Assembly: GCA_964510495.1 (NCBI GenBank)
Contig: CAZECR010000003.1
Span: forward strand, 550 to 64,549
DNA length: 64,000 nucleotides
Source of the DNA: an uncultured Gammaproteobacteria bacterium
GTDB taxonomy: Bacteria > Patescibacteriota > Patescibacteriia > Magasanikbacterales > GWA2-37-8
Direction of reading: 5' to 3'
The notes under the pieces were generated by a model. The model was not told where the DNA came from, searched no databases, and was given only the letters and a program-made list of their open reading frames with translations. Below, in pieces: positions 1-40,756 of the stretch. The number at the start of each line of letters is the position of its first letter. Within the stretch, counting starts at the first letter, position 1. The position numbers were made by a program, and so were the translations under genes.

Positions 1-1125
1 ACGATTGATATTTTTGTACACAATACTTTCTGACCGAAGTTCGCGTTCGCGAGACAAGCGTTGTTTTATATCATTGTTTTGTCTTGCTGCTTGTAAGACC
101 TCATCGTCTGCTAGTTCGTCAGCAAATAACTTTTTTGCTTCTTGTTCCTCCGCATCTAATTTTTCATCTACTGCAGCGTATGCTGCTTTAAGGCCTTCGG
201 TCGCTGCCTTACTGCTGTTTTCATTTTTGCTCAGTTTTGCCTGTAAGAGCTGTGCGTCAGCAACTTTTTTTTCGGGATAGAGATTTTCGAGGAAAGAACG
301 AATAGCTCGTTCATCGGGAATTCGAGCTAATTCATTGTCTGCTGTTTTTATGGATAATTCGAGGTCGTGCGCTTGATCAACAAGACGTTTTAAATCTGTT
401 GGCAGCGTTTCGTCCATAGTGATGTCTCCGTGCATTACTTGATGATGCAAAAGAATATCTTTGTCTGTTACCATCCGGTCAGATGTGCTGTTAAAATCTT
501 CCAAAGCCTTTTCAAGCTGTGGTTGCACTAGAGAAAGTTTAAATTCCGCTTCGCTTTTTTCACCTTCCCAAGAAGTTTGTTTAACATCTTCAGGTGTCGC
601 GAGGCGATTGCCGGTGCGATCAATGAGTTTGCTGCGACGTTTAACGTCTTCCAGTTTTTCTTGAGCCAAGAGTGACATTTTTTCATGCACTCGTTCCAAG
701 TTTTCTGCAAACGTAAGTCTGTCTTTTTCTTTTGGAAGTTGAATAATGAGTTTAGCTAAGTCAGTCGCGTGATCATATCCTTGGTCAACCACTTTTTTCA
801 ATTCGTTTGCTGCTTCGTCATCAAGAAAGAAGCCACTCAATTTTTCATGGAGTCCGGCAAGCTGGCCAAGATGCGCTGTATATTCTTCGGTTGAAGCTAA
901 TAAATTTTGTATATTTTTTTTGTAGCTTGGCGGGGGCGTGCCTGTTTCATCAAGATTCTCTAAATCTTCCTGAACGCGACTATTATGGCGTTCCACATCG
1001 GCCGCACTACCTTCAAGTAGGGTTTTGTAGGCGCGAAAAGCATCCTTTAATTCCGTTGCAGTAAGATCAATAATGTTTGACACCTCTTCATCCTGAGTAT
1101 GTTGAGGATGAGTTTCAGAAGCCAT
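1..1125 (-). CDS. Hypothetical acidic coiled-coil protein, 3'-truncated by the window edge. The ATG is at 1125 and the frame is open for 375 codons to position 1.
   Basis: Manual translation of the reverse strand gives an uninterrupted frame, MASETHPQHTQDEEVSNIIDLTATELKDAF...NDIKQRLSRERELRSESIVYKNINR, running off the window. It is missing from the ORF track only because it has no stop inside the window. The short + strand ORFs at 5-280, 461-664 and 807-1064 overlap it and are probably spurious. Confidence 0.5.
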   Translation of the reverse strand, partial: MASETHPQHTQDEEVSNIIDLTATELKDAFRAYKTLLEGSAADVERHNSRVQEDLENLDETGTPPPSYKKNIQNLLASTEEYTAHLGQLAGLHEKLSGFFLDDEAANELKKVVDQGYDHATDLAKLIIQLPKEKDRLTFAENLERVHEKMSLLAQEKLEDVKRRSKLIDRTGNRLATPEDVKQTSWEGEKSEAEFKLSLVQPQLEKALEDFNSTSDRMVTDKDILLHHQVMHGDITMDETLPTDLKRLVDQAHDLELSIKTADNELARIPDERAIRSFLENLYPEKKVADAQLLQAKLSKNENSSKAATEGLKAAYAAVDEKLDAEEQEAKKLFADELADDEVLQAARQNNDIKQRLSRERELRSESIVYKNINR

Positions 1126-1336
1126 ACGTTTGGTACTAAAAAATAAAAGTAGCTTAAGTATATCATTTCTATTTTTGACCGACTATACGCCTGTCAAGGT
1201 TCAAAATGAAACGAGCAACTATAGCATATTTTTGCCGTTTGGTCAACCTTTCTTCCTTACATTTTCCTCTAGTTCCAATTTTTTAGAAGCAGGGGAGAAA
1301 GGGCGGCCGGAAGTGGTGCGGCGCGTCCCAAGGAGA

Positions 1337-2203
1337 TTAAGGGTTGAGTAAGGCTTCCACTTCTTGCCAGGTGCGTACGACGAAGCAATTCGGCGCTTCG
1401 CTGAAGTACCGAAGGTCGTACACTGGAGTGTGCGAATTGGCGATGAGTATGCAGATGGGGTTGAGGTGGAGAAACCGCTGGCGGCCTGGGTGCAGGTCCA
1501 TGTCTGCATTGTCACCGATGAAGACGATTTTGTCTGCGCCGGCGCACAGGGGGTCGAGAACTCTAAAGAGACGCGGGCGCTCTGTTGGAATCGGGCGCTG
1601 GAGGTGCTGGTTGTAGCAGGCCTTTTCTGGCTCTATAACATGCCACTTGTCTGCGTCACCATGAACATGCTCCAGAAGCCAGGTAAGAGATTGCTCTGTT
1701 GGCAAGTTTTTAAACAGATTAGCCAGCTTTGTCTGAGCCTTGCTGGTAGGAGCATTGGTGACGACCTCGGTTGACCAGCCGGCATGTCGAAGCTTGTTAA
1801 GCGTCTCAGCGGCCCCTGGCTTGAGCTCGCTTACACCAAAAGGGTAGCTTTCTTTAAAGATGCGCTGGATTGTGGTGTGGCGAATGGTTGGGTCCATAAG
1901 CGCCCCACAAGAATCCAGGATCTCACCCGCGATGACGCTCGCTTTCAGAAGCTCATCGCAGGCCGAGGCAACGATGACCCCATCACGGAGCCAGCCGTAC
2001 AGATGCGGTGTTCCGTCGATGCGGGCATACCCCTTTTTATACCACTCCTTCATTTCTTCCCAGGTAATTTTTGACCTGAGTTCGGGGAGTTTGGCTAGTC
2101 GAAGGGTAAAAGCGACGGTAAAATTGCCTAATTCCTCCTTGCCTGGAAGCATGGCAATGATTGTTTCGTCGCAGTCCGCGATCAGCAAGCGTTTTGTTGT
2201 CAT
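1337..2203 (-). CDS. HAD-superfamily hydrolase, G+C-rich
   Basis: HAD motif I LLIADCDETII (DxDxT) and motif IV FIGDNADMD. ATG at 2203 is preceded by AGGAGCC. Start trimmed from the track ORF at 2332. Confidence 0.65.
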   Translation of the reverse strand: MTTKRLLIADCDETIIAMLPGKEELGNFTVAFTLRLAKLPELRSKITWEEMKEWYKKGYARIDGTPHLYGWLRDGVIVASACDELLKASVIAGEILDSCGALMDPTIRHTTIQRIFKESYPFGVSELKPGAAETLNKLRHAGWSTEVVTNAPTSKAQTKLANLFKNLPTEQSLTWLLEHVHGDADKWHVIEPEKACYNQHLQRPIPTERPRLFRVLDPLCAGADKIVFIGDNADMDLHPGRQRFLHLNPICILIANSHTPVYDLRYFSEAPNCFVVRTWQEVEALLNP

Positions 2204-2448
2204 GGTGGTAGGCTCCTTATTTTTCTTGCTTGCACGATAACAGCGTTTTTCCCCACTTGTCAACACCCTTGATTTTTTTGTAAAAATATGGTAGGGTTGT
2301 GGCAATTGAACGGTTCTTTCACAACCGCCCAACTATCGAGCCAATTTTTTGCGAAGATTATTGCGATTGTGAAAGAACCTTTTTATTTTTGCAGAATTGT
2401 TGGCCCGAACGGTTTGGGCCTAAAAAGAACACAAAAGGGGAGCGTGAC

Positions 2449-3609
2449 ATGACCAAATTTGAGCTCAAGAACGGTCTCAACGTGGCCAAGGTCTGGTTCC
2501 TTTTCGGGGCAGGCCTCTTCTTCTACGGGGCATTCATGGCCCTTATGGAGTACTGGAAGAAAGTCGGTGGTCTCCATCAGGCGACCATTTTCTTGAACAC
2601 GAGCGTGAGTGCGAGTTTCTCGGCCGGAATCATCGCTGCAGGAATTGTGGTCCGCTACTTTCGGCGGCACCGCAGCGAGATCCGCAAGATCAACAGCGTC
2701 ATGCCGGCACACCTCATCGTTGAGAGTGGTCTGCACACCGGCATCGTGGTCGGCTCGTCCAACGCTGTGTACACCAACACAGGTTGGGCGGTCACGGCTG
2801 GTTCGGGCCTCCTCAAGGGCCTTGCGCTGCAGTTCTCGGCCTTGGTCGACAATATCCTCGTCAAGGCTGGGCTCAAGAAAGCCCCCGATCCCACCAAGCG
2901 CCAGCTCGATACCTGGGCGCTGCGTGTCGCCCTCATCGGGATCGCCCTCATCGTCTGGGGTAAGCTTGATCTTAGCAAGCACTCGAGCCGTATGGGCATG
3001 CTCATCGTGCTCGTCTGCGCCTTCATCTACGCCGGCTCCTATGCTCGGCGCCAGTATCTGGCCGGTCGCTATCGAGTGCTGATCAATCGTCTCATCGAAG
3101 AGCTCCAGCTCACCACCGATGAGGCCAAGGTCTTCAGCGCCATCGCTGAAAAGTGGTGGTTCGCCCTCGAACAGCTGGCCTGCATGCTCTGTGTTGGCGT
3201 CATCTGTTCTGGCTTCGCGGCGCTCTATGCGTATGCCTGGGGTCAGGCCAAGTACCTTTACTTCGCGCCCTGGGTCTTCCTCTCGGGTATTCCGTTCGGC
3301 CTCATGAGCTATTTCGCCGTCATGATCATGGTGTCCGACTATCGTCTGCCAGGCGAAGATCAGCCTGCCTCCATGAAGGCACGCATGGTCATGACCAAGG
3401 GCCAGGGCATCGTCGCCTCACTCATCGGGCCTATCCCAGTGATCCTCTACTTCGGCCTTGACTGGCCCGAGTGGAAGGTCATCGCGGGTTCGCTTGTGGT
3501 GCTGTTCGCGGTGGTGATTCCGTACCTTCCGGATTTCGCCAGCCGTACCCTCGCGCAGCTCAAGCGTCTGCGCCGCAGCTCCACCCCAGCGACGGCGATC
3601 AACGGTTAA
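2449..3609 (+). CDS. Polytopic membrane protein, G+C-rich, unknown function
   Basis: MTKFELKNG start with AAAGGGGAG RBS. Many hydrophobic segments. The track ORF begins at an upstream GTG (2299). High GC produces many spurious overlapping ORFs on both strands. Confidence 0.55.
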   Translation: MTKFELKNGLNVAKVWFLFGAGLFFYGAFMALMEYWKKVGGLHQATIFLNTSVSASFSAGIIAAGIVVRYFRRHRSEIRKINSVMPAHLIVESGLHTGIVVGSSNAVYTNTGWAVTAGSGLLKGLALQFSALVDNILVKAGLKKAPDPTKRQLDTWALRVALIGIALIVWGKLDLSKHSSRMGMLIVLVCAFIYAGSYARRQYLAGRYRVLINRLIEELQLTTDEAKVFSAIAEKWWFALEQLACMLCVGVICSGFAALYAYAWGQAKYLYFAPWVFLSGIPFGLMSYFAVMIMVSDYRLPGEDQPASMKARMVMTKGQGIVASLIGPIPVILYFGLDWPEWKVIAGSLVVLFAVVIPYLPDFASRTLAQLKRLRRSSTPATAING

Positions 3610-3628
3610 GCTCTCCTCCCACCCCCCC

Positions 3629-3663
3629 CGGGCACCGGCAGCATCCACTGCTGCCGGTGCCCA
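3629..3663 (+). terminator. GC-rich hairpin after the membrane-protein gene (cgggcaccggcagc / gctgccggtgccc), no U-tract
   Basis: Inverted repeat read directly from the sequence. Confidence 0.4.
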
Positions 3664-3763
3664 GTCCTCCTCCCCAAACCCCTGGTAGCAAGCTCGTAAA
3701 CGACTTGCTTTTTTTAATCCATTTGCTATACTTGCCTTTGTTAAAAATTAGTGGTAAAATCTC

Positions 3764-3837
3764 GGGCAATTAGCTCAGTTGGTTAGAGCGTTACATTGAC
3801 ATTGTAAAGGCCACAGGTTCGAATCCTGTATTGCCCA
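3764..3837 (+). tRNA. tRNA-Val (anticodon GAC)
   Basis: Cloverleaf by eye: acceptor GGGCAAT/ATTGCCC, D-arm GCTCAGTTGGTTAGAGC, anticodon stem TTACA/TGTAA with loop TTGACAT, T-arm ACAGG-TTCGAAT-CCTGT. No encoded CCA. Confidence 0.85.
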
Positions 3838-3851
3838 CGTAGCCCAGACAT

Positions 3852-3925
3852 GGGCGTGTAGCTCAGATGGTTAGAGCGCGTCACTGATAATGACGAGGTC
3901 CCCGGTTCGATTCCAGGCACGCCCA
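3852..3925 (+). tRNA. tRNA-Ile (anticodon GAT)
   Basis: Acceptor GGGCGTG/CACGCCC, anticodon stem CGTCA/TGACG with loop CTGATAA, T-loop TTCGATT. One C-A mismatch in the T-stem as read by eye. Confidence 0.8.
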
Positions 3926-3996
3926 CATATATGCTTGATACTGTATCGAGCTCCCCTCAGTGTAAAAGATTGGCAGTTTAAAAATAAATACTTTTT

Positions 3997-5265
3997 ATGC
4001 CAAGAATGCGCGGACATGAACTCTTTGGCTTTACCGATCCTTCAGAAGAAGAGTACGCTCCCACTAACGAGGAGCTTAAAGGCGAAGATCGTGCGCGGCA
4101 AATAGTTTTAAACGAGCTTGCTGATATTGATCACGAGCTTGCTCGTCCTACTGAAGACAGATTTACAGGCGAAAAAAATAAATTCGCAGTAACTGATCCA
4201 GCTGTTTTTTGGGATCGTTTGGCATATCTGCGCATCGATCATATTGATACGATTAAAGATCCGGTAGTGCGCAAAGAACTGGACTCGCGCATTGCCATGC
4301 TTGAACAGCGTATTTATAAACAATTTGTTCCATTTATAGAATCACGAGTTGCCGTTTTTGGTCTCCAGCATTCTCCCCTAGAGAACAGCGTGTCGCGAAG
4401 AAAAATACAAGCGGCAGATATCGCCGAGCAATTTGAAGAAGCATACCGAGTGCTTGAGGTATTAAAAATTTCCGAAGAACAGCACTTTGATTTTTTGAAC
4501 GAACTCAATCGTTTACAAGAAAAACTCGATCGCTACCGCAGTGAGGTAACCCTCTTTACATTTGAAAAAATAGAAGAAGAATTGCATAGAGAATTTTACG
4601 ATCTAGAATACGGCGGCTGGTACTCACCGCCAGGGCAAAAAGCGCGACCGCTTGAAGATGCGCGGGCTACCAAAGAGCGGCAAATTGAACTGGATTTATT
4701 AGTAGCCAAGGCACATTCACTGAATCATATTGCCGAAAGAATGTTGCACGAACATATCCGGCTTGATTGCCAAGCGAGGAGCAAGAGTATTCTGGAGTGG
4801 GCTGAGTATTACAAAGCAAAAGCAGAAGCTCCACGCGAAATGTATATTTTGGAAGCAACGCTCAAGGAGCTTTTAGAAAAAGCCAAAAATAAGGAGGATA
4901 TTGACGAGCATAATTTTGAGCAGGCTAAAAAACGCCTTAATGACTTGGAGACGCAGCGGCTTGGTAGCGAAAGTGCCACAATGCTACCTATTTTGAAAAA
5001 ACTTATTCTGGCGATTGAACGCCAGCGAGCGGGTAATTCAACCGATGAGGACGAAGATCGTTTTACTGCTGAGAAAGGCGTGGACTGGGCTTGGGTAATG
5101 CTCGGCGTAGGACGAGATGCTTTGCAAGACGAGGTTAAAAAGGCCTATCACAGCCTTGCACGCACCTATCACCCCGATACGGCTAAAGTAGCGGACGCAA
5201 CAGAAAAAATGAAGCAAATTAATGAGGCTTACGAATTCGTGAAACGAGTAAAAAAATGGAAATAG
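3997..5265 (+). CDS. Protein with a C-terminal J-domain (DnaJ-like, HPD motif) and a long N-terminal domain of unknown function
   Basis: C-terminus VMLGVGRDALQDEVKKAYHSLARTYHPDTAKVADATEKMKQINEAYEFV is a canonical J-domain with HPD. Confidence 0.7.
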   Translation: MPRMRGHELFGFTDPSEEEYAPTNEELKGEDRARQIVLNELADIDHELARPTEDRFTGEKNKFAVTDPAVFWDRLAYLRIDHIDTIKDPVVRKELDSRIAMLEQRIYKQFVPFIESRVAVFGLQHSPLENSVSRRKIQAADIAEQFEEAYRVLEVLKISEEQHFDFLNELNRLQEKLDRYRSEVTLFTFEKIEEELHREFYDLEYGGWYSPPGQKARPLEDARATKERQIELDLLVAKAHSLNHIAERMLHEHIRLDCQARSKSILEWAEYYKAKAEAPREMYILEATLKELLEKAKNKEDIDEHNFEQAKKRLNDLETQRLGSESATMLPILKKLILAIERQRAGNSTDEDEDRFTAEKGVDWAWVMLGVGRDALQDEVKKAYHSLARTYHPDTAKVADATEKMKQINEAYEFVKRVKKWK

Positions 5266-5317
5266 TTATTTTTATGAACGAGGCGTAAAAGTGGGTGTTT
5301 GTTTGCTAAAAATCAAA

Positions 5318-5338
5318 AAGCTGTGTATAGTACAGCTT
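5318..5338 (+). terminator. Weak hairpin between the J-domain gene and lepB (aagctgt gtatagt acagctt), followed by a T-rich tract
   Basis: Inverted repeat read from the sequence. Confidence 0.3.
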
Positions 5339-5360
5339 GCTACTATTATTTTTCCTGCCT

Positions 5361-5954
5361 ATGTCTGACCAACCCCAAAGTCGTTTTTCATCGGCTGTTA
5401 CCAGTGCGGGGCTTTTTTTTCTCGAACTTGTTAAGGTCGTTGCTTTGGCCGGTATCACCATTTTCTTGGTGCGCTATTTTTTATTTAAGCCCTTTTATGT
5501 TAAGGGTGCTTCCATGGAGCCAACATTCTACGAAAAGGAATATTTAATCATCGATGAACTGAGTTACCGTTTGCATGATCCGATTCGAGGGGACGTTATC
5601 GTGTTCCGCCCACCGGAGGATCAAAAGGAATTTTTTTTGAAACGTATTATCGGTCTCCCGGGTGAGCGCGTAAAGGTGGCTGAAGGGCATGTTACAATTT
5701 ATAATGAAGCCCATCCCGAAGGAATAACACTTGACGAAACATATCTGCCCACAGATCTGGCAACTACCGGTGAACAAAATATTGTTTTAAATGCTGACCA
5801 GTACTTTGTACTTGGTGATAACCGGCCTAATAGTTACGATTCGCGCCGTTTTGGGCCGATCGCTCGTTCGAGCATGATCGGGCGTGCCTGGCTTCGCGGC
5901 TGGCCATTTGACCGTGTACAGACGTTCACCGCTCCTACCTATACTAATTTTTAG
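5361..5954 (+). CDS. lepB: Signal peptidase I (S26 family)
   Basis: Motifs GASMEPTF, LKRIIGLPGERV, GDNRPNSYDSRRFGPI. ATG at 5361; the track ORF starts at an upstream TTG. Confidence 0.85.
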   Translation: MSDQPQSRFSSAVTSAGLFFLELVKVVALAGITIFLVRYFLFKPFYVKGASMEPTFYEKEYLIIDELSYRLHDPIRGDVIVFRPPEDQKEFFLKRIIGLPGERVKVAEGHVTIYNEAHPEGITLDETYLPTDLATTGEQNIVLNADQYFVLGDNRPNSYDSRRFGPIARSSMIGRAWLRGWPFDRVQTFTAPTYTNF

Positions 5955-7430: not shown

Positions 7431-7474
7431 ATGCATATTAATTACGTAACTCCTTAGAAAGGGAGGTGAACTTT

Positions 7475-7717
7475 GTGGCTGAAATCAAACGAAAGAAAAC
7501 CGAGTCCTTTGAGGCCTTCATGCGTCGCGTTAAAAAACGCTGGCAGCAGTCCGGTAAAATTTTACAGGTCAAGAAGATTCAATTTTACGACGGCGGAAAA
7601 AGTAAAAACATGCGTCGCAAGAGTGCTCTGCACAAACTCGGCGTAGCCGGTAAGATCGAATATCTCAAAAAAATTGGACGTCTTCCAGAAGAACTTGGAA
7701 GAAATTTCAAACGGTAA
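7475..7717 (+). CDS. rpsU: 30S ribosomal protein S21
   Basis: AEIKRKKTESFEAFMRRVKKRWQQSGKILQVKKIQFYD aligns to the S21 consensus. GTG start 7 nt after AAAGGGAGG. Confidence 0.8.
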   Translation: MAEIKRKKTESFEAFMRRVKKRWQQSGKILQVKKIQFYDGGKSKNMRRKSALHKLGVAGKIEYLKKIGRLPEELGRNFKR

Positions 7718-7752: not shown

Positions 7753-9774
7753 ATGCTTCAATGGATCAAACAAAATAACATGACGCTTCGAAAAACTGCC
7801 ACGGTCTTGGGGGTACTGTTAGTGGCAGTTTTTTCGTTTTTAAAACTAGCTCCTGCCCTGGCTCAAACTACTGTTGCACCAGAAGCACCAGTTGATACTG
7901 GTATCGAAGTTGTGCAGCAGCCGTCAGGCCTGGCAGCAACCGATATTCGTCAGATTATCGCTACCATTATTCGAGTAGCGCTTGGGCTTTTGGGTATTAT
8001 TTTACTTGGTCTCGTTTTGTATGGCGGTTATTTATACATGACTGCGGGCGGCAACGAAGAACAAGTAAGCCAAGCAAAAACTATTTTACGCAACGCTGTT
8101 ATCGGTCTTATTATTATTCTTAGTGCGTACGCTATTGTTACCTTTGTCTTGCGCGCACTCGGCCTTGGACAAGGAGCAGGTGGGGGAGACCTGGGCGGTA
8201 TTAACGGCACAGGTACCCAAAATTTTAATGGCAGTGGGGCACTCGGTGGTATTATTAAAGATCATTATCCAACTCGTGACCAGGTGGGAGTAGCCAGAAA
8301 TTCCAAAATTATTATTACATTCCGTAAGGCTATTAAAGTTGATAGTTTTGTTAAAAATACCAATCAAAGTAAAGATGCCAGTGGAAATGAAATTTTTGGT
8401 GACTGTATTAATATTGGGGTTAACATGAACTGGAAAACCGATTGTGACGCGCTTACCCTAGACGCAGATCACATTGCTATTACTCGGGCAGACACTGGGG
8501 CGGCTATTACTGGCGCAGCAGTCTTGGCTACCTACCAAGACGGTAAGGCGTATACCATTGTTATTAGGCCGTATGACTACTTGGGCTCAGGCACAGACAA
8601 AATTGCCTATAAAGTTCATATGGGTTCGGCAATTCAACTCGACGATGCTGCCAACAACAATCCTTCAGCCTTTCAGGTGAGTAGCCTCGGGAAAAATTAT
8701 TACGAATGGCAGTTTACCTGTAGCACCGAGCTCGACACTACGCCGCCAATTGTAAACAGTGTTTTCCCGTCAGATGGTGCAACGGAATCAAAAAATACGG
8801 TTATTCAAATTGATTTTAATAAAGCAATGGACCCGACAGGTATCCAGGGAACATTCCGTGATGGCTCCAATAGCTATGTTCTTGATGGTAATACTATTTT
8901 TCTAAAGAATAACAAAAGTACTATTCCACTTGGAACATTTAACCTGACTAACGGGTATCGCACGCTTGAATTTACTTCAACTAAAGAATGTGGTCGCAAT
9001 GCTTGCGGTCAGCCTATTTATTGTCTGCCGGTCTGTGATACGGCAAATGATCCTACCTGCAAACAAGATGATTATTCACTCTTAGTTAAAGCTGGCCGCA
9101 CGTTTAGCGCTTCGTCATTTGAATCAATTCCTTTTTCTGGAGCTATGGATGTTTCGGGTAATGCCCTCGACGCTAACAAAAATAGTAAAGTAGATGTTGC
9201 CCCGACGACAGGTGATATTTTCACCGTTCAGAATAAGCCTGATAACTATTCATGGGGTTTTACTGTTAAGGACGAAATTGATAATACTGCGCCGTATCTC
9301 ATGCAGGTTACTCCTGGACTTGATGCTGAATTTGTTGCTCCAAAAGATGATGTTACTATGCTATTTAGCAAGCGAATGCGTGTAGAGCCAATGTATGGTA
9401 TTGATTTACAGCAATCACTTGCGAATGCCGAGCCGCTCTGTCGCACGCCACGCCTGAATTTCAACGCAAATAATACAACGCTCACCACGCTAACCCACTG
9501 TCCTTTTCCAACTAAAGATGGGGCGAATTTTTATCCTGTACTTACTTCTGCGATCGAAGACGTGCACTATAACTGTTTTTTCCCAGGCAAAGGACCGGGA
9601 GGAACAACCGAAGTTAACAAGCGTCTTAAGGAATCCTCGCTGTGTAGTAGCGATGGTAAGAACTGCTGTCCGGTAGAAGCAGTTGGGGCAGGTGCGTTTT
9701 GCTGTAATGGGGTTGTTGTTCCAAATGTTGCGAATCAGGCTCAATGTTTGCAATATTTAAAATCGACTCCGTAG
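7753..9774 (+). CDS. Secreted/membrane surface protein with an N-terminal VirB2/TrbC-like pilin module and an SbsA-type Ig-like domain
   Basis: Signal peptide, then two hydrophobic helices flanking YGGYLYMTAGGNEEQ. A downstream segment NSVFPSDGATESKNTVIQIDFNKAMDPTG looks like Big_5/SbsA_Ig. An alternative ATG is at 7780. Confidence 0.7.
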   Translation: MLQWIKQNNMTLRKTATVLGVLLVAVFSFLKLAPALAQTTVAPEAPVDTGIEVVQQPSGLAATDIRQIIATIIRVALGLLGIILLGLVLYGGYLYMTAGGNEEQVSQAKTILRNAVIGLIIILSAYAIVTFVLRALGLGQGAGGGDLGGINGTGTQNFNGSGALGGIIKDHYPTRDQVGVARNSKIIITFRKAIKVDSFVKNTNQSKDASGNEIFGDCINIGVNMNWKTDCDALTLDADHIAITRADTGAAITGAAVLATYQDGKAYTIVIRPYDYLGSGTDKIAYKVHMGSAIQLDDAANNNPSAFQVSSLGKNYYEWQFTCSTELDTTPPIVNSVFPSDGATESKNTVIQIDFNKAMDPTGIQGTFRDGSNSYVLDGNTIFLKNNKSTIPLGTFNLTNGYRTLEFTSTKECGRNACGQPIYCLPVCDTANDPTCKQDDYSLLVKAGRTFSASSFESIPFSGAMDVSGNALDANKNSKVDVAPTTGDIFTVQNKPDNYSWGFTVKDEIDNTAPYLMQVTPGLDAEFVAPKDDVTMLFSKRMRVEPMYGIDLQQSLANAEPLCRTPRLNFNANNTTLTTLTHCPFPTKDGANFYPVLTSAIEDVHYNCFFPGKGPGGTTEVNKRLKESSLCSSDGKNCCPVEAVGAGAFCCNGVVVPNVANQAQCLQYLKSTP

Positions 9775-9800
9775 TTCTATTTATTTAAAATCAAAGTTTT

Positions 9801-12800
9801 GTGCAAAGGCTGGCGCTCAAAAAAATACTATTTACGGTCTGTTTTACTCTGGTGGTTACTCTCGGCTCCCTAACGGCGCTGTGGGTTGTGCATGCTGCAA
9901 CGCCTGCACTTGATGTTGGTCTTAATGGCGATGTAGCGGCTACAACGGGTCTTGCAACTACGGATGTGCGATTGGTAGTGGCTCGAATAATTCGTACCGT
10001 TCTTGGACTTCTCGGTATTATTGCCCTGGTGATCGTTCTGTACGGTGGTTTTTCCTATATGACTGCCGGTGGAGATGATGAAAAAGTCGGTAGTGCCAAA
10101 AAAATCTTAGTAAATGGTGGTATTGGTCTTCTCATCATCCTTTCTTCGTACGCAATTACCAGTTTTGTTATTAGTCGTTTGGTCTCCGCGACTACTGGAG
10201 TAGACAATGGTCAAAACTGTACCGGACCAAATTGCACCGATGGGTCAGGAGGTTCGGGAACAGGTTTTAACGCCTCCGGAAATGCTTTTTATGTTTCGAG
10301 TCTTCCATCTAATGGAAATCTTTGTATTCGCAATGTTCATCCGTCAGTAGTATTTAGTAAAGAAGTTGATATAGCAACTCTGTCAGGAAATGTTGTGGTT
10401 TCCGCAGTGGGCGGCTCGGCTGTTTCAGGAAAATGGGAGTACGGAACAAAAAAGGCTGTGGTGTTTTTTGTTCCAGTGGGTGACTGCGCTCCAAGTACGG
10501 GTCAGGATTGTCTCCTACCAAAGACATCGTACACTATTACTTTCCAGAATCCTTCAGCAATCAAGAGTGCAGACGGTACACAAAGTCTTAACTGCAGTAT
10601 TAAAGGTGGCTGTGGACCAGTAACATTTACAACAGGTGAAGGCGTAGATCGCTTGCCTCCTCAAATTACTATTACCGAGCCTTTGGCGAATGCTAGTTTT
10701 CAGGCCGGAGTAGCTATACCAGTGACTGTTTCGTATACAGACGACAACGGTATTCAAAATGTTTCGGTGTATCAGGGTGCAGCTGTGGTTGGTAGTAAAT
10801 CCGTTAATGGTTGTCAAAAAACTGGCTCAGTCGAACTCAGCTGGGTTACCGGTGGTTTAGACGCTGGCGCTTATACCTTGCAAGCCCTCGGTACAGATTG
10901 GAGCGGGGGACAAGACACTAAAAATATTGCAGTAAATCTTAAACCAAATCACTGTTTTAATAATCAATTAGAGGCAGACCTTGGTGAAAAACAAGTCGGA
11001 CCTACTGCTTGCGGTGGAGAATGCGGAAGCTGTGCAGGCGAAAGTTGTACGGCAAATGCCGACTGTGGCAGTGGTTTTTGCCAAGTCCCAGCGGGTGGTG
11101 GAGCAGGTGTCTGTATTCAGCGCACTACCGTTAACGGTCTTTCACCCAACTCAGGCGCGCCTGGTACTTTTGTTACTGTTTCAGGAAAGTATTTTGGTTC
11201 AACTGGACGTATTTATTTTGCAGCTGTTGCCAATCCAAACATTACTAAGGAAACTGATTGGGTGGAGGCTAAGGCGGTTAGTTGTGGAGCTGGTTTTAAC
11301 AGTTGGTCTTCATCGCAAATCATAGTTGAAGTTCCAGCCAATGCTGTGCCAGGGCCTGTTGCTGTATTTTCGGGCGCAGCTACGCTTAAAGCAGCTGCTA
11401 CGGCCAATACTTCTTTATTTGATACAACACGCGATGCCTGGGGTCCATTGGTTGGAGATTTTACTGTAAATGACGAAGTGCATCCGAGTATTTGTGCGCT
11501 TAATCCCGCTGTTGGCAAAAGTGGTTCAGCGATAGCATTAATTGGTAAAAATTTTGGCCTACTTTCTACAACTGCCAATCAAGTTACCTTTGGTACCGCG
11601 GTAGCAGTTACTCGTCCAAACGATTGGGTTGATGCTCTCATTAAAACAACAGTCCCTAATCTTGAACAAGGCACTGTAACTGTTAGAGTTACTAGCAATG
11701 GCCGCCAGAGTAATGCTGTAACTTTTTCTGTTCAAGAAGGGGCAAGTGAAACTGCGCCATTTATTAATACTATTAGCACCACTTCGGGAGCACGAGGCGA
11801 ATATATTACCATCTCCGGTCGCAATTTTGGTAGTAAATTGGGAGCAGTCTGGTTTAAAGCAGCGCCAACCAGCGAAGCAATCCTGGGTAGTTTTGATTTT
11901 CCGGATAGCTGCCAGGCAGCAGTGTGGCGGGACGATCAGATTATTGTTAAATTCCCACTCGATAAAGGGTCGGTTGGCACTAGTTATTTACTCCAGATTA
12001 AAACAGCCGATGACGCAGTCAGCGCGATTGATTCTAATACAACCTTTGCACTTATTGCCGGCACTCCTAACCCGGGTATTTGTAAAATTTCTCCTCTATC
12101 TGGAACTGTCCCTTTTGCCGCGGGTCAAGTACTAACCTTGAGCGGTGAATATTTTGGTACACAGCCAGGTATTTATTTCTGGAAGGCTAGTGCGAATACA
12201 GCCGATATGAGCAGCCGTGCCCTCACAGCCGCCACTGATATCACGTCTAGAAGCAATAGTACAATTAGCCTTCGTCCACCGGCTGGCGCTCAAACTGGAC
12301 CGGTCGTGGTAGTTCGCGGTGAAGATAGTAAAGTAAGCAATCCAATAAATTTTACGGTTGGTAGTTGTGTTCAAAATAACAATACTTGTCCAGTTTCTGG
12401 GTACACCTGCTGTAGTAGCGGAGCTGATGCAGGTTCCTGCAAACCCGCTGGTGAGCTTTGTTCGCAGGGGGTGCGCTCTGCGGGGTATGTCTGGCGCTTT
12501 AGTTCTGCTGCGATTCCAGTTGTGCCGCATGTTGTTGAGCGCTGTGATGCCGGTACCGATCAAGGAAGAAATTTACCTTCACCATCCCCAAGTATTCAAT
12601 GGGATCAAAGTGCTAATGGCGACAGTCACAATGTGTGCCGTACCGCTTTGGCCACAGTTGAATTGACTGCTTTGATTGATCAAAAAACAGTAACCAAAGA
12701 CACGGTCATTGTTAATAAATGTTCCGGGGTCGATGAAAAGAATAATTGTCTTAATCCAGTTCGTGTTGATCTTACGACCGATAGCTATGGAGTAAAAACT

Positions 12801-15800
12801 GCTATGACGGATAGCGGGGGATCTCCGCATGCGTTTTTGCAAGTTGGTCCTGCAACTCGCTCGTGGGAAGATAATACCTGGTATCAAGTTGCCCTGACTT
12901 CTGGTATCCGCTCGGCAGGCAGTGCTAGTAGCACAGCTTTGGCGCTCGCTGCTGATCGACCGTGTCAAATTGCCGGATCGGCCTATTGTTATGTTTTTAA
13001 AACTGATACAAAAAATTGTGCTCTCAAAGCAGTGGTTGTAACACCCTATAGTTATTGGACTAAGGTACTGGAGTCTCCAATTAAATTGCGTACAAGTGCC
13101 GGTAGTGCTACTGAATTGTATTATCGTGGAAATGGGCTTAGTAATCAGCGTTGTATCATGATGGACGTGAGCGGGTTTAACTGGCAGTGGAACAGCGAGA
13201 ATACTGGGTATGCTGCGATGTATGGGTCGGTTAACGCACCAGTTTCTCAGGTTTCTGCACTTGCCAACACCGTAGCAATCGGTCTCACTAACCCTGATGA
13301 AGCCATAAATATTGTGGCTGTAGCAAGTACCGGTACTGCTTCGTACGCCGGAAAAAGTCCGCTTACAATTGACCTGAGTGACCCAGGTGTGGTTGATTAT
13401 TGGCCGAGATGTCTTGAAGCCTGTACCAACGCTGAAGTTGCGGTGCGTTTTAACACCACAATGTCGCTGCGTAATCTTCCTGGAACGATTCAAGGCGGTA
13501 GTGTGCAACTTTTGAAATGTACTGATGAAAATTGTTTAAGCACGCAGTCAGTTGTAAATCTTAACGACATAACGCTTGATCCAACAAGTAATTATTCAGT
13601 ACTTAAAATTGCCAATTCATTGACGGGTTCTCAATTACTTGAACCTAATACGCTTTATAAAGTTGTTGTCTCAACCGCCTCAACAGACCCGGCTGCGGCA
13701 ACTAACCAGCTTTGGTCGGCCGCCAAACTCAATGATCCTCAGACTTCGAGCAAGCCTTTTAATCAAGAGTTTACCTGGCGTTTTAGAACTAAAAATGGAC
13801 AATGCCAAGTTGATAAAGCGGTAGTAAATCCTCCAGAATTTTTTGGAAAATCAATTGCGGAAAAGACTGTCTATACTGTTCAGCCCTACGCTGCTCCAGA
13901 TAGCTGCAGTACCCAAGGTCAAAAACTTAATCCTTGGTCCGTAAGTTGGAATTGGAGTTCAGCTGATTCCAAGGTGGCATCCGTTACCTCATTTAGTACT
14001 AAGGGAAATAACCCGTCATGTACTCCGAGTTGTATTCGCAAAGGTAGTGATGTTCCGGCGACTCAGGCTAATGTAGTACCTGTATGTGGTAATGGTAAAG
14101 TAGAAGCAGGTGAAGATTGTGATGGGCCAGATAGTGCTAAAGGTTGCGCGCTCAATTGTTTGTTTGCAGGCAACACTGCTGCAACTTGCGGTAACGGTAT
14201 TGTTGAACCAAATTTAGGCGAAGCCTGCGATCCAAAAGATCCTAAAACTGCTACCGGCTGTAGTCTTAGTTGCCGCCATCTTGGTTCTTCGGTAACCACT
14301 GATGCTTCTAATACAAATGCTTCAATTTGTGGCAATAGTAGTATTGGAAGTGGAGAAGACTGCGACACTGGTATTACAAAGAGTGTAGCTAATCCATTGT
14401 CACAGCTTAACTGTTCTCAAAAATGTTTGCATACTGGATCGCGTTTGTCTAAGCAGTGGTGTATTGCTAACGCCCTTACTCGAGGTGGTTTTTCAGGCAC
14501 GGAGTTTGATGCGGCTTGTGGGCTCAGCTTCAGTCAGTGTGGCGATCGTGTTTTAACTCCTGATGAGGATTCTGGCTGTGATGATCCAAATACTGGTTGG
14601 AATAGCGGTGCGTGTACCCAGTATTGTCTGAAGAAAACTTCAACAGAATGTGTGCCAGGAACAGAAGGTTGTGATGCTAATGGTCGTCATACCGGTTCGT
14701 CCCTCCTCTACAGTACTCCATCATCATGTGGAGATGGCACCGCAGGTACTGGTGAAGACGCTGTTTGTGAAACTGGCTTAGTAATTAATCATAGCGGACT
14801 TATTGACCCGTGGACCCTGGCTACAGGAGTTGGTTTGGGCACTCCAAAAGGAGTTCCAGCCGCTCAAACCACTTTTGTAAAAGCTGTTACTAATCAGAAT
14901 AATCGTTCGGTAAGCGGAAGCGGTGTATTTAGTGTTGCCTGTGGGTACCAAACTGATCTCGATTGTAAACGAACTTTTGGTAGTGATTACTCTGTTGGAG
15001 AAAATACCTGTTGTTACAGAAAGCCTGGCCTCATAAGCACCTATCCTGCCAATAACGCAGCTACAGTTTGTCCTAATACATATCTCGAAGCTGTTTTTGA
15101 TAGTAAAATTGATGAAAATACTCTCACCGGAAACGTGCTTATTGCTCGTGGTGGCAACACTACTTGTGCCGCAGGCCAACAAGATGTTACGAATTTGATT
15201 GCGCGCACCGAGAGCTACATCGCTCTACCTTGGTATAAAAAAGTACTGGCTCAGGCAGTCGCAGCATTTAAAAATGTCTTCCTAGGCTCTGATGTTGCTG
15301 CCCTAGTCACTCCTGTTACTAATTGGTGCGTAGGTCAAGATATTGGGGTGGCACGTGTGGCGCCAGTTGTTGGAGCCCCTACATCAACGTCACGAATCAG
15401 CATTCAAATTAACACTCCGCTGGCCTTTACAACAGATTATGCCGTTATTCTTAAAGAAGGAGTGAAGGACACTAACGGTGTTAGTATTGGTAAACTTGCT
15501 ACTAAAAATATTAGCTGGCACTTTTCGACGAGCGATAAAATTTGCGAAGTTAACAAAGTCACCGTCAATCCTCCGGAATGGTCATTCTCCGTTGCCAATG
15601 CTACAACGACCCTTGAGGCTGCTGCCTTTACCTCAAACGGCTCGAAAGTACAGCCAATTCCTGGATTCTATGACTGGCAGTATCGCTGGGGACCAATAGA
15701 CAATCCTTATGTTTCTTTGCAAACAACTAATACCACCCTTAATGTAATTACTGCTCAAAATCGCAACGGTGAGATTGATCTTCGAGCTGAAGCAAATATT

Positions 15801-22462: not shown

Positions 22463-22900
22463 ATGATGCATGTTGATGTGAATATTCTGGTTACCTGTCC
22501 TTTTTCTGAAGCAGAAATTAAAAGAGTGGTAATTGTTGCTCAGGGTTTTGAGAAAAAAATTAAGTCTGCAGTTGAAATAAATATTGTTAGTAATAAAATT
22601 ATTCAAGATTTAAATCGACGATATCGAGGGTTAAATAAACCAACGGATGTTTTGTCGTTTTCCTGGCAAGAAGATGCTTCAGTCCCGGCCGAGTCACTTG
22701 GTCAGGTATATGTAGCGTACCCATACATTGTTCAGCAAGCCAAGCGATTTGGAGTTACCCCTAAAGCAGAGTTTTATCGCATGCTGTCACACGGACTCTT
22801 GCATTTAACCGGCCACGATCATCTAGAGGAATCTGCGGCTAAGAAAATGTTTGCTCTACAGGAAAAAATTGTTGCAGCACTAGAGAGTTCTAAAAAGTAG
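22463..22900 (+). CDS. ybeY: Endoribonuclease YbeY (rRNA maturation factor)
   Basis: HGLLHLTGHDH zinc-binding motif; size 145 aa. Confidence 0.85.
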   Translation: MMHVDVNILVTCPFSEAEIKRVVIVAQGFEKKIKSAVEINIVSNKIIQDLNRRYRGLNKPTDVLSFSWQEDASVPAESLGQVYVAYPYIVQQAKRFGVTPKAEFYRMLSHGLLHLTGHDHLEESAAKKMFALQEKIVAALESSKK

Positions 22901-22904
22901 TTGT

Positions 22905-23270
22905 ATGGATATTCAGCGTTTAGGAAGCAGTATTAAAGAAGCCCTTCGGGGACTCGGCACCGTCTATCGGTCGGAGCAAAATTTTCGTTTACAAATCTAT
23001 GTAAGTATCTTGGTGTTTATTGCCGCAGGACTTTTAAGATTGCGAGGGTATGAGGTTGTCGTCATTATCCTGCTTATCGGGCTTGTACTCATTATGGAAC
23101 TGTTAAATACTGCTTTTGAGTACTGCGCAGACCTCTTAAAACCCCGTTTGAATCATTATGTTCAGCTTATCAAAGAAACCATGGCCGCCGCTGTTTTAGT
23201 CACAACTTTGGTGGCTGCAGCCATTGGACTGATAATTTTTGTTCCACACTTTCTTGCTTTGTTAAAATAG
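22905..23270 (+). CDS. dgkA: Diacylglycerol/undecaprenol kinase family protein
   Basis: ELLNTAFEYCADL matches the prokaryotic DAGK motif; three TM helices. The ybeY-dgkA pairing is typical. Confidence 0.75.
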   Translation: MDIQRLGSSIKEALRGLGTVYRSEQNFRLQIYVSILVFIAAGLLRLRGYEVVVIILLIGLVLIMELLNTAFEYCADLLKPRLNHYVQLIKETMAAAVLVTTLVAAAIGLIIFVPHFLALLK

Positions 23271-34977: not shown

Positions 34978-35025
34978 GTCGTCGTCGGCGAGGAGCGCCG
35001 ACGACGGGTGGTGTGAATGGATCTC

Positions 35026-35466: not shown

Positions 35467-35521
35467 AAAGCCTCCACTGGTTTTGACGATCCTTTCAAGC
35501 CTCACTAAGGCCTAAAAGCAT

Positions 35522-40750: not shown

Positions 40751-40756
40751 CACATA

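Follow-up and report, generated by a model that had tools for sequence, protein, structure and literature searches.

The locus forms part of a 64,000-nucleotide stretch of DNA, referred to here as the window, and comprises two genes transcribed away from each other, followed by two tRNA genes (Table 1). The minus-strand gene encodes a HAD-superfamily phosphatase-like protein and the plus-strand gene encodes a polytopic membrane protein, in agreement with the description in an earlier note on this DNA. The left edge of the G+C-rich islet formed by the two genes coincides exactly with the HAD stop codon at 1337, and the right edge lies at about 3716. Related DNA in which parts of this module were recovered is referred to by its labels (L002, L004, L006, L008 and L010).

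Table 1. Features of the two-gene locus and its borders, in window coordinates
Feature	Position	Strand	Basis or remark
G+C-rich sequence flanking the 3' end of the HAD gene; left border of the cassette	1290..1336	-	82% identity of 1255-1336 to L004 520-600
Gene for a HAD-superfamily phosphatase-like protein of 288 aa; motifs I and II separated by a large cap insert	1337..2203	-	Pfam, motifs
SD site AAGGAG of the HAD gene	2213..2218	-	duplex with 16S tail, -8.7 kcal/mol
Back-to-back divergent promoters (predicted)	2234..2297	both	minus strand, consensus scan; plus strand, read from sequence
5' leader of the membrane gene, conserved and structured	2300..2436	+	alignment, folding
SD site GGGGAG of the membrane gene	2437..2442	+	duplex with 16S tail, -13.4 kcal/mol
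Membrane-protein gene, 386 aa, eight predicted transmembrane segments (N-in, C-in)	2449..3609	+	hydropathy, positive-inside rule
G+C-rich, C-rich 3' UTR of the membrane gene	3610..3716	+	hairpin search, sequence
Promoter-like site TTGCCT-N17-TAAAAT with TG, just upstream of tRNA-Val	3732..3760	+	conserved in L004, partly in L002
tRNA-Val (anticodon GAC), right-hand anchor of the module	3764..3838	+	also after the membrane gene in L004, L002, L006 and L008
tRNA-Ile (anticodon GAT)	3852..3926	+	after tRNA-Val in L004, L006 and L008; absent in L002

The HAD protein carries the residues D10-x-D12-x-T14 (D10-C-D12-E-T14 in the window), T149-N150, K186 and D231, all of which are unchanged across four alleles. 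Motif IV reads GDNADMD in three of these alleles and contains DD in L006, with D231 invariant. The protein resembles HAD subfamily I (C1 cap; phosphoglycolate-phosphatase-like, TIGR01449, PDB 2hsz) in possessing motif residues of all four catalytic motifs (DxDxT, T/S, K and, in GDxxxD, the invariant Asp), in the placement of the cap between motifs I and II, and in local similarity around motif II, the region to which its NCBIfam and PDB matches are confined. It differs from that subfamily in that its whole-length scores fall below every curated cut-off (the PF00702 score is 25.7 bits, with a cut-off of 26.4) and in the cap and C-terminal motifs WLLEHVHG and ANSxTPxYDxxYF, which are specific to its own family. 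Identity to the window copy is 53% in L010, 41% in L004 and 27% in L006, and no homologue outside the clade was found among 5.8 billion clustered proteins. The Rossmann-like core with squiggle and flap that is expected of HAD hydrolases is putative here, as an AlphaFold2 model based on two aligned sequences reaches a mean pLDDT of only 36.9. The protein appears to belong to a new HAD subfamily. Its left neighbor, a 510-aa coiled-coil protein, has no Pfam match.

The membrane protein matches nothing in the Pfam, NCBIfam, PADLOC and PHROG families or in the PDB, and none of the 5.8 billion clustered proteins outside the clade is related to it. When 1.84 billion representatives were scanned exhaustively with HMMER, only four matched (E <= 0.001), namely P0002 and three remote relatives, none of them outside the clade. 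The AlphaFold model has a pLDDT of 40. The protein thus appears to define a new, otherwise unknown family. Comparison with L004 gives a dN/dS of 0.10 and a dS of 0.29 for the gene, which shows purifying selection and, together with the invariant motif residues of the HAD protein, indicates that both genes are functional. Searches of plasmid, phage and viral collections found no relative of either protein.

The 245-bp intergenic spacer contains the predicted promoters and the leader. The minus-strand promoter of the HAD gene is predicted by consensus scan as TTGACA-N18-TATCGT, and TTGATT-N17-(TG)G-TAGGGT on the plus strand is the putative promoter of the membrane gene. The promoter core TTGTCAACACCCTTGATTTTTTT occurs once in the window and does not differ between the window, L004, L006 and L010, although the proteins share only 24-53% identity. 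The leader contains a 13-bp stem (2312-2324/2368-2380) with a U-run behind it, a long hairpin as an alternative fold, and another hairpin at 2402-2420, and its minimum free energy is -44 kcal/mol (z = -2.3). Three genomes share the 13-bp stem and U-run, one G-C pair having changed to A-U, and the consensus hairpin shows three compensatory pairs among only five loci. Judged by eye on the alignment, the leader core is about 90% identical to that of L002, where dS of the coding sequence is about 1; the complete spacer, from HAD start to membrane-gene start, is 65% identical. No Rfam family matches the leader. Both promoter and leader have native composition and are conserved throughout the clade, and the leader is a candidate cis-regulatory RNA that may act on the membrane gene by attenuation.

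Downstream of the membrane gene, the GC hairpin that had been reported ahead of the tRNA genes corresponds to a 14-bp perfect stem at 3630-3662, which is preserved through base changes in L004, L002 and L006. A further stem (AGCAAG/CTTGCT, then T7; 3687-3716, read directly from the sequence) is terminator-like. The islet is located on the 5' side of tRNA-Val and on the same strand. Integrases insert at the 3' end of tRNA genes. No integrase domain was detected by Pfam in the two islet genes or in the next two genes beyond the tRNAs (the assignments being HAD, no family, DnaJ domain and signal peptidase). A repeat of either tRNA 3' end, which the earlier note had failed to see and had proposed to search for at the far boundary, is absent from 900-5500 and from the entire window at up to three mismatches. 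The same note had placed the islet in the classic position of an island; its adjacency to the tRNA genes is real, but on the 5' side and with neither integrase nor att-like repeat the position is not the classic one.

The islet (1337-3700) has a G+C content of 55.8%, compared with 44.8% for the whole window, and each of the ten richest 2,364-bp windows overlaps it. Outside the islet, 500-bp windows average 44.4% (sd 4.1). Inside both genes, 300-bp windows peak at 57-62%, and the intergenic spacer falls to 42%. The excess resides almost wholly at the third codon position, with GC1 and GC2 within the native range: third-position G+C (GC3) is 0.616 for the HAD gene and 0.778 for the membrane gene, versus 0.30-0.46 for about 40 native ORFs. 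Codon preference is inverted relative to native genes (ATC 85% versus 22%, TTC 90% versus 22% and AAG 85% versus 24%), and overlapping spurious ORFs occur in every frame, as noted at first inspection. The raw tetranucleotide distance between islet and background is 0.488, whereas native windows give 0.227 +/- 0.051. The sliding-window and tetranucleotide analyses that had been suggested as a check bear out the visual impression of a segment far richer in G+C than its flanks. After normalization for G+C, the dinucleotide signature of the islet is not an outlier (103 versus 72 +/- 35), which weakly favors long residence.

Both islet genes are also distinguished by their Shine-Dalgarno (SD) sites. 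The duplex energies listed in Table 1 compare with a mean of -3.1 +/- 2.0 kcal/mol for 37 native starts, and of 38 native ORF starts only two show so much as a 4-nt SD core (in the 64 kb, with predicted start codons). The initial observation of strong SD sequences on genes whose neighbors mostly lack them is thus upheld. The HAD orthologues in L004, L006 and L010 likewise have an SD core at their starts, and the membrane-gene orthologues have GGGAG (L004), AAGGAG (L002) and AGGAGG (L006). In total, all nine orthologous starts of the two genes carry a core, whereas random windows inside the islets do so in only 14.8% of cases.

Parts of the module occupy the same place at L002, L004, L006, L008 and L010, in four other genomes, and the genomes that carry it are probably Magasanikbacteria-like CPR/Patescibacteria. 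L004 and L006 have the HAD gene, the membrane gene and both tRNA genes. L002 has a HAD remnant, the membrane gene and tRNA-Val, and L010 has the HAD gene with the same promoter core. L008, whose HisRS is only 66% identical to that of the window, has the membrane gene and both tRNA genes, followed by SPase, HisRS and rpsU in the order found in the window. GC3 of the module genes against the local background is 0.62 and 0.78 versus about 0.38 in the window, 0.67 and 0.76 versus 0.41 in L004, 0.91 versus 0.50 in L002, 0.65 and 0.83 versus 0.35 in L006, 0.59 versus 0.31 in L008 and 0.72 versus 0.32 in L010, so that every copy exceeds its own background by +0.25 to +0.48. With a dS of 0.84-1.65 for native neighbor genes between the window and L004, and with the HisRS divergence of L008, an unmaintained GC3 excess should have decayed. 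Because every copy retains the excess, and an SD site wherever its start is visible, the signal is maintained rather than a decaying footprint. The earlier note had taken a native composition of the genes in relatives, or a lack of contrast with the background, as grounds against acquisition. The contrast is clear, and the relatives' genes are likewise non-native, an outcome that the note did not foresee and that calls for an explanation other than recent acquisition.

The two genes do not diverge in a clock-like manner. Between the window and L004, identity is 97% for HisRS, 96.5% for SPase, 94% for the membrane protein and 89% for a 673-aa protein, but 41% for the HAD protein. Nucleotide similarity to L004 breaks off precisely at the borders of the HAD gene, within which it is undetectable, unlike the 82% identity of the adjoining flank; across the wider spacer (1084-1336) identity drops to 57%. 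The Poisson distance of the HAD protein is already 0.89 at the window-L004 split, where HisRS is 3% diverged, and only 1.31 to L006. For the membrane protein, the ratio of its divergence to that of the 673-aa protein is 0.53 against L004 and 2.2 against L008, the dS of 0.29 is well below that of the neighboring genes, and differences along the gene are over-dispersed (variance 24.7, mean 7.9). A HAD identity of 41% amid neighbors at 89-97% points to a horizontal process, allele replacement, at the locus, most plausibly through homologous recombination between conserved flanks. This inference is drawn from rate inconsistency among four to six sequences rather than from phylogenies, and an extreme acceleration of the HAD gene (dN/dS about 0.3-0.45) would mimic it. 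The idea of acquired DNA is not supported in the form of a recent island; non-core behavior of the locus is.

The observed composition, SD sites, fixed position, clade restriction, non-clock-like divergence and purifying selection on the membrane gene are best explained, with a probability of roughly 0.6, by a long-resident, clade-specific, recombining two-gene cassette written in a maintained second dialect. This dialect combines G/C-ending codons with strong SD sites, as opposed to the A/T-ending codons and essentially absent SD sites of native genes. The HAD-type phosphatase and the eight-helix membrane protein would be transcribed outward from the conserved back-to-back promoter, the latter from behind the hairpin/terminator-like leader, in a unit placed directly 5' of tRNA-Val(GAC)/tRNA-Ile(GAT). 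The promoter/leader, terminators and tRNA genes would serve as recombination anchors, across which divergent coding alleles are swapped between lineages. Translation of the cassette genes would be SD-dependent, and the cytoplasmic phosphatase may be functionally coupled to the transporter-like membrane protein. Since the dialect persists in orthologues with saturated synonymous sites, the clade must either maintain it actively or keep renewing it. Some force, whether synonymous selection, biased gene conversion or an unseen reservoir, has to hold this subset of genes in the second dialect. The putative new membrane-protein family, the putative new HAD subfamily and the candidate leader RNA are now defined for experiments.

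GC3 of the cassette may be upheld by selection at synonymous sites, by GC-biased gene conversion at a recombination hot spot, or by both. A population-genetic estimate indicates that selection holding GC3 at 0.78 cuts the synonymous rate by only about 25%, which leaves the 3-5-fold lower dS of the membrane gene unexplained by such selection. As for gene conversion, raised GC3 is reported for recombining bacterial genes (Lassalle et al. 2015, PMC4450053), and here too it coincides with signs of recombination. Parsimony polarization of third positions yields 31 S>W versus 5 W>S changes, where a saturated outgroup of 91% GC3 alone predicts about 33 versus 3. The effects of biased conversion in bacteria are reportedly much smaller than the GC3 excess of this locus.

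The O-antigen (rfb) cluster located between galF and gnd in Enterobacteriaceae, as it is commonly described, offers a parallel for such a cassette. It likewise has a fixed chromosomal position with conserved flanks, highly divergent alleles that are older than the genomes carrying them and are swapped by homologous recombination in the flanks, an atypical base composition common to all alleles, and a poorly conserved polytopic membrane protein. The present locus differs in having two genes only, with no glycosyltransferase or sugar-nucleotide genes, in deviating upward rather than downward in G+C, and in a link to surface structures that is putative.

Six further GC3-rich, SD-led orphan ORFs are present in the window, in five patches between conserved syntenic genes. 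An SD site precedes the first ATG in six of seven GC3-rich orphan ORFs, and the islets are closer to one another than to the background in tetranucleotide usage (distances of 0.255 and 0.433). L002 lacks the 35-kb islet, its flanking genes being separated there by 55 bp, and the slot between a DUF1972 glycosyltransferase gene and EamA is filled by unrelated G+C-rich orphans in the window and L002.

Since these other islets are present in one genome and absent or unrelated in the other, fresh input from outside fits them better than maintenance in situ. They are consistent with an unsampled G+C-rich, SD-using reservoir (a mobile element, virus or partner organism of the clade) that keeps feeding genes into intergenic slots, in which case the HAD and membrane genes would be the oldest and most often re-seeded cargo and their dialect would be renewed from outside; the signs of allele replacement in both cassette genes are also compatible with such a source. 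However, neither family occurs on any uniformly G+C-rich contig, plasmid, phage or viral contig in the collections searched, and the copies with enough flanking sequence (L002, L004, L006, L008 and L010) are all chromosomal with native flanks, L009 being too short. No integrase or transposase was seen at the islets examined. Furthermore, replacement through the flanks requires donors that share those flanks, that is, members of the clade, which merely moves the maintenance problem elsewhere. A reservoir of this kind is thus a possible but unlikely alternative.

Strictly vertical inheritance would have selection at the mRNA level (stability, folding or special translation) keep the G/C-ending codons and SD sites, with the HAD protein, and the membrane protein in deeper branches, simply evolving very fast. 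Position, promoter and SD site are indeed kept in all copies, identity ranks of the membrane protein (94% > 70% > 25-27%) track those of native genes, the low dS of the membrane gene fits synonymous-site constraint, and the HAD motif residues (D10, D12, T14, T149, K186 and D231) are retained while the cap diverges. This explanation is made improbable by the HAD distances, which are far from clock-like, and by the precise stop of L004 similarity at the gene ends. Selection intrinsic to the genes also does not predict the same dialect in unrelated lineage-specific orphans, and the G+C excess extends into non-coding 3' UTRs.

A further reading concerns translation. The only native gene in the window with a strong SD site is rpsU, identified from an 83-aa ORF that matches 22 bS21 sequences in the PDB (best E = 1.6e-5). 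Its SD, GAAAGGGAGGTGA, lies 5 nt ahead of the GTG start at 7475 and has a duplex energy of -18.5 kcal/mol, and the L008 orthologue carries GAAAGAGAGGTGA. The window itself contains no 16S gene; the 16S 3' end of L002, GGATCACCTCCTTTCT, keeps the canonical anti-SD. In Bacteroidia, SD-blind translation is accompanied by autoregulation of rpsU (bS21) (Jha 2021, PMC7797042; McNutt 2023, PMC9976891). The window resembles that system in that native genes lack SD sites while a relative's 16S retains the anti-SD, and in that rpsU is the one native gene with an extended SD (taken as below -13 kcal/mol). It differs in belonging to a CPR bacterium rather than to Bacteroidota, and in having a set of strongly SD-led accessory genes, where F. 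johnsoniae has essentially only rpsU. Bacteroidia-type translation also entails sequestration of the 16S 3' tail by bS21, bS18 and bS6, and a full parallel would require the same here. It is conceivable, though doubtful, that this CPR lineage runs two initiation regimes, one for SD-blind native genes and one for G/C-codon, SD-led accessory genes. Under such a scheme, rpsU would be autoregulated via its extended SD and SD-blind ribosomes would translate the native genes, while the SD-led class would depend on ribosomes with a free anti-SD, for example those lacking bS21. Its clients in the window would be the genes of the HAD/membrane cassette together with six or more further orphan ORFs, and the islets would constitute a specialized-ribosome regulon whose dialect is kept as a regulatory signal. 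If true, this would extend such regulation beyond Bacteroidota for the first time, and to many client genes instead of one. The SD pattern raises a testable question, namely whether reduced-genome episymbionts control accessory genes by ribosome heterogeneity.

The original proposal, a recent island from a high-G+C donor (perhaps the host of an episymbiont) inserted beside the tRNA genes and not yet ameliorated, is now barely credible. The locus shares with tRNA-linked integrative islands of the pathogenicity-island type its atypical G+C and foreign-looking codon usage, its tRNA neighbors and an obscure accessory cargo, and the strong SD sites and the sharply different HAD slot of close relatives would suit a newcomer. 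It departs from them in its 5' location, in having no integrase, direct (att) repeats or mobility genes, and in being found at the same site with an undecayed compositional signal in all relatives recovered, down to 66% HisRS identity, with SD cores at every copy whose start is present. The native, clade-conserved promoter and leader inside the islet likewise argue against a recent arrival, and the proposed search for a donor lineage names none, as neither protein has homologues in other lineages among 1.8-5.8 billion proteins. Atypical G+C beside a tRNA gene is routinely scored as recent horizontal transfer. The stable signature across deep divergence, the fixed position and the restriction of the gene pair to this clade imply that composition-based calls of horizontal transfer in CPR can be systematically wrong. 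The opposite, 3' side of tRNA-Ile does take insertions in the clade, which is in line with an island beside these tRNA genes: in the window this side holds a DnaJ-domain gene, which is missing in L004 and L008, and in L006 the 3' end of tRNA-Ile is repeated there over 21 nt.

Over positions 1337-3700, the islet that carries the HAD gene and the membrane gene, G+C content is 55.8% compared with 44.8% for the whole window, and the ten most G+C-rich 2,364-bp stretches in a sliding scan of the window all overlap it. In 300-bp steps the profile starts at about 41%, reaches 52-57% at 1200-2100, drops to 42% across the spacer at 2100-2400, climbs to 55-62% at 2400-3750 and then returns to 42-46%. The excess is an effect of the third codon position: GC3 is 0.616 in the HAD gene and 0.778 in the membrane gene, compared with 0.30-0.46 in native ORFs, those of the remaining genome. 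GC1 and GC2 lie inside the native range, so amino-acid composition was rejected as the source. Codon preference is flipped relative to native genes for ATC (85% versus 22%), TTC (90% versus 22%), AAG (85% versus 24%) and CAG (100% versus 46%). The raw tetranucleotide distance between islet and background is 0.488, compared with 0.227 +/- 0.051 for native windows, and the GC-normalised dinucleotide signature of the islet is no outlier. Strong Shine-Dalgarno (SD) sites precede the HAD gene (AAGGAG) and the membrane gene (GGGGAG), even a 4-nt SD core is found at only 2 of 38 native starts, and many spurious ORFs overlap the two genes. The earlier note, made by inspection, had described the segment as G+C-rich, dense in spurious ORFs and led by SD sequences that native genes mostly lack; this description holds, and the composition analyses that it proposed mark the segment as atypical. 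High-expression translational selection was rejected as a cause, given that two short ORFs at 22463-23270, presumably ribosomal-protein genes, have GC3 values of 0.30-0.40 and rpsU has 0.46. An assembly chimera was also rejected, as other, independently made assemblies of the strain show the same junctions (L001, which is 99.7% identical to the window); they are likewise found in the related contigs L004, L002, L006 and L008 for the parts that those contigs cover.

Features of the window, with positions on the forward strand
Feature	Position	Strand	Details
HAD gene	2203 to 1337	-	288 aa
Membrane-gene 5' leader	2300-2436	+	Conserved; 13-bp stem then U-run, or alternative long hairpin
Membrane gene	2449-3609	+	386 aa
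Perfect 14-bp hairpin	3630-3662
Second stem with T7	3687-3716
tRNA-Val(GAC)	3764-3838
tRNA-Ile(GAT)	3852-3926
rpsU (bS21)	7466-7717	+	83-aa ORF; 22 bS21 PDB sequences matched, best E = 1.6e-5
GC3-rich patch	about 30.2-31.2 kb
GC3-rich patch	about 35.0-35.5 kb (35000-35520)
GC3-rich patch	about 38.1-38.6 kb (38100-38560)
GC3-rich patch	about 40.8-41.6 kb (40760-41560)		Directly after tRNA-Val(TAC) at 40677-40751
GC3-rich patch	about 44.3-45.2 kb (44400-45160)

The minus-strand product is a predicted divergent HAD-superfamily enzyme. Its PF00702 score of 25.7 bits is just below the threshold of 26.4, and similarity to phosphoglycolate-phosphatase-like families and PDB 2hsz is local, confined to the motif II region; searches of PADLOC, PHROGs, plasmids and phages (tblastn), viral contigs and PDB profiles yielded only this weak motif II match. 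Residues D10, D12, T14, T149, K186 and D231, which cover all four catalytic motifs, are invariant across four HAD alleles. The membrane protein has eight predicted transmembrane helices with loop charges consistently indicating an N-in/C-in topology, and matches nothing among Pfam, NCBIfam, PADLOC and PHROG families or solved structures. Its gene has a dN/dS of 0.10 relative to the closest orthologue, which indicates a functional gene. This value, the strong period-3 G+C pattern and the conserved ORFs led to the rejection of a structured RNA in place of genes. AlphaFold2 models built from 2-sequence alignments are unusable (pLDDT 40.0 for the membrane protein and 36.9 for HAD). Among 5.8 billion clustered proteins, a single further cluster turned up for the membrane protein (71% identity) and a single one for HAD (53%), and an exhaustive HMMER search of 1.84 billion representatives added three remote membrane-protein relatives only (E = 3e-7 to 1e-5). 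Plasmid and phage tblastn searches and a viral-contig scan returned no relatives. The donor lineage that the earlier note proposed to identify in this way could not be named from these protein searches.

Module content and GC3 in the window and related contigs (two GC3 values refer to the HAD and membrane genes)
Contig	Source	Content	Module GC3	Local native GC3
Window			0.62 / 0.78	about 0.38
L004	MAG contig CAZINT010000002.1	HAD(-), membrane(+), tRNA-Val, tRNA-Ile, then signal peptidase and HisRS, as in the window	0.67 / 0.76	0.41
L002	Candidatus Magasanikiibacteriota MAG JAHFHZ010000001.1	Coiled-coil left-neighbour orthologue (37%), HAD remnant, membrane gene, tRNA-Val	0.91	0.50
L006	JGI metagenome contig	All four parts; proteins just 24-27% identical to the window's	0.65 / 0.83	0.35
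L008	JGI contig, 97.6 kb	Membrane gene 3' part, both tRNAs, signal peptidase, HisRS, 83-aa gene, 672-aa protein, giant protein	0.59	0.31
L010	Same sample as L001	Third HAD allele behind identical promoter core	0.72	0.32

The same module is found in relatives with the same dialect of G/C-ending codons and strong SD sites. The HAD remnant of L002 is 82 aa long (MPKLRVLFLDKDGT...), and the gene order of L008 is colinear with 5.3-20 kb of the window. An SD core is present at 9/9 orthologous starts of the HAD and membrane genes, compared with 14.8% of random intra-islet windows. Native dS between the two closest genomes, those of the window and L004, is already 0.84-1.65, and HisRS identity between the window and L008 is 66%. 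Foreign composition, if unmaintained, would have decayed over such divergence, which argues against recent acquisition, and some force must therefore maintain or renew the dialect. A 31:5 excess of G/C-to-A/T changes, obtained with L002 as outgroup, was rejected as evidence of amelioration because saturation of that outgroup, whose GC3 is 91%, gives the same by chance. The reading favoured here, at a probability of roughly 0.6, is a long-resident, clade-specific HAD and membrane-gene cassette located 5' of tRNA-Val and tRNA-Ile, with a maintained or renewed dialect and with alleles swapped by recombination. As to the source genomes, L004 is publicly labelled an uncultured Gammaproteobacteria bacterium and has genes 89-97% identical to those of the window; the label is probably wrong, the module otherwise occurring in a MAG labelled Candidatus Magasanikiibacteriota. 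The 16S rRNA gene of L002 (5776-7508) lies 185 bp from the module-flanking coiled-coil gene and, at 1,733 bp, probably carries an insertion.

Under the favoured reading, the cassette would belong to a class of SD-led accessory genes with G/C-ending codons whose dialect is maintained or renewed. Five further short patches in the window have GC3 values of 0.60-0.81 and hold six orphan ORFs in all, none of which matches Pfam, PADLOC or PHROG families. Five orphans searched as one concatenated query gave no obvious homologues, in a search that also failed to return the query ORFs themselves, and an exact look-up of two found neither on record. A strong SD precedes the first ATG in 6/7 such ORFs, one of the seven being from L002. 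With the starts of the six window orphans chosen by the analyst, SD pairing energies range from -7.4 to -18.9 kcal/mol, compared with -3.1 +/- 2.0 at native starts (Mann-Whitney p = 1e-5) and with random intra-islet windows (p = 1e-4). The ORF from 30779 encodes a product with a lipoprotein-like signal peptide. The 31-40 kb part of the window is colinear with L002 downstream of tRNA-Val; the islet at 35 kb is missing at the syntenic site of L002, where 55 bp separate the flanking genes, and the window and L002 hold unrelated G+C-rich orphans in the slot bounded by the DUF1972 glycosyltransferase and EamA genes. Those of L002 (16949-19300) include a 410-aa SD-led secreted protein. Continual re-seeding of such slots from an unsampled G+C-rich reservoir is an unlikely alternative to the favoured reading.

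The two cassette genes diverge at rates unlike those of their neighbours. Between the window and L004, protein identity is 97% for HisRS, 96.5% for the signal peptidase, 89% for the 673-aa protein, 94% for the membrane protein and 41% for HAD. Nucleotide similarity to L004 ends at the HAD stop codon and restarts 18 bp upstream of the HAD start, which suggests that the promoter was retained and the coding part exchanged. The HAD Poisson distance is 0.89 to L004, a shallow split, yet only 1.31 to L006. For the membrane gene, dS is 0.29 compared with 0.84-1.65 for neighbouring genes, differences are over-dispersed along the gene, and the membrane protein has diverged 0.53 times as much as the 673-aa protein against L004 and 2.2 times as much against L008. 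The simplest reading of these rates, as distinct from trees, is that divergent alleles of both genes are swapped among lineages, and lateral allele exchange inside the clade is likely. Such exchange would proceed by homologous recombination in the conserved flanks (promoter and leader, terminators, tRNAs). Strictly vertical inheritance with gene-intrinsic selection, set beside these uneven rates, is quite improbable.

The earlier note had read the islet as a recently acquired tRNA-linked island from a high-GC donor. It had correctly seen a GC hairpin ahead of the two tRNA genes and neither an integrase nor a direct tRNA repeat; domain and repeat searches detected no integrase, transposase or att repeat at the islet, and the partial tRNA 3'-end repeat suggested for its far boundary was found neither there nor at the islet after tRNA-Val(TAC). 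Integrases insert on the 3' side of a tRNA gene, the classic side, and not on the 5' side. Recent horizontal transfer is very improbable, given that the islet lies 5' of tRNA-Val with none of these mobility features and that its dialect is conserved at the same site despite the divergence of native genes. The 3' side of tRNA-Ile is variable within the clade. A 1.37-kb insert lies directly 3' of it (3927-5298) and carries a gene of native composition for a DnaJ-domain protein of 422 aa, the J-domain being C-terminal. An imperfect inverted repeat of 15 nt (3979-3993 / 5260-5274) flanks this gene on both sides, and no att repeat was found at the insert. The insert is missing from L004 and L008, where the tRNA is followed by the signal peptidase gene. 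In L006, a 21-nt direct repeat (20/21) of the tRNA-Ile 3' end and flank (3740-3760 / 3913-3933) recurs 173 bp downstream and, enclosing a G+C-rich stretch, resembles an integration or excision scar at the classic side.

The 245-bp spacer between the two genes has native composition. Its minus strand carries a consensus promoter for HAD, and inspection suggests a putative membrane-gene promoter (TTGATT-N17-TAGGGT, with TG upstream). The window, L004, L006 and L010 share the 23-nt promoter core TTGTCAACACCCTTGATTTTTTT without a mismatch; in metagenomes it was otherwise found on a single unrelated 1-kb contig (L007), and a viral scan was empty. The leader core is about 90% identical to that of L002 by eye, compared with 65% for the whole spacer and a coding-sequence dS of about 1. 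The outer stem of the long hairpin covaries between two leader types, GCCAA:UUGGC and AUCAA:UUGAU, represented by the window, L004 and L002 and by L006 and L010, respectively. No Rfam family matches the leader, a candidate element that, from five sequences, looks like an attenuator or a riboswitch-like element. The membrane-gene 3' UTR (3610-3685, plus strand) is C-rich, with CCUCC-like tracts CTCCTCCCACCCCCCCC and CCTCCTCCCC; L004 and L006 have comparable tracts, and L002 has a weaker one (CCCCTTCCCC). The tract could be Rho-utilisation-like, or an anti-SD mimic that pairs with the gene's own SD.

The only native gene of the window with a strong SD is rpsU. Its likely GTG start at 7475 is preceded, at a distance of 5 nt, by the extended SD GAAAGGGAGGTGA, which pairs with the 16S tail at -18.5 kcal/mol and is kept in L008; the canonical anti-SD is retained in the 16S rRNA of L002. 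The segment 7371-7752 is 96.6% identical to L004, compared with about 75-88% in adjacent, mostly coding 500-bp windows, because rpsU and its extended SD lie there. Two papers on Bacteroidia (PMC7797042, PMC9976891) describe SD-blind ribosomes and an rpsU that regulates itself by way of an extended SD with a pairing energy under -13 kcal/mol. The situation here is alike in its SD-poor native genes, extended SD on rpsU and retained anti-SD (in L002). A search of the accessible literature found no paper tying bS21 or SD usage to Patescibacteria and no report of the rpsU extended-SD pattern for CPR; for Parcubacteria, Tsurumaki et al. (PMC9297842) report no more than that the presence of the anti-SD varies. 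Downstream of rpsU, positions 7753-19931 (plus strand) encode the 673-aa protein and then a 3,376-aa giant protein. Their L008 orthologues match T4SS_pilin, Big_5, Big_7, TIG and Laminin_G_3, and the two are probably episymbiont surface or attachment proteins.
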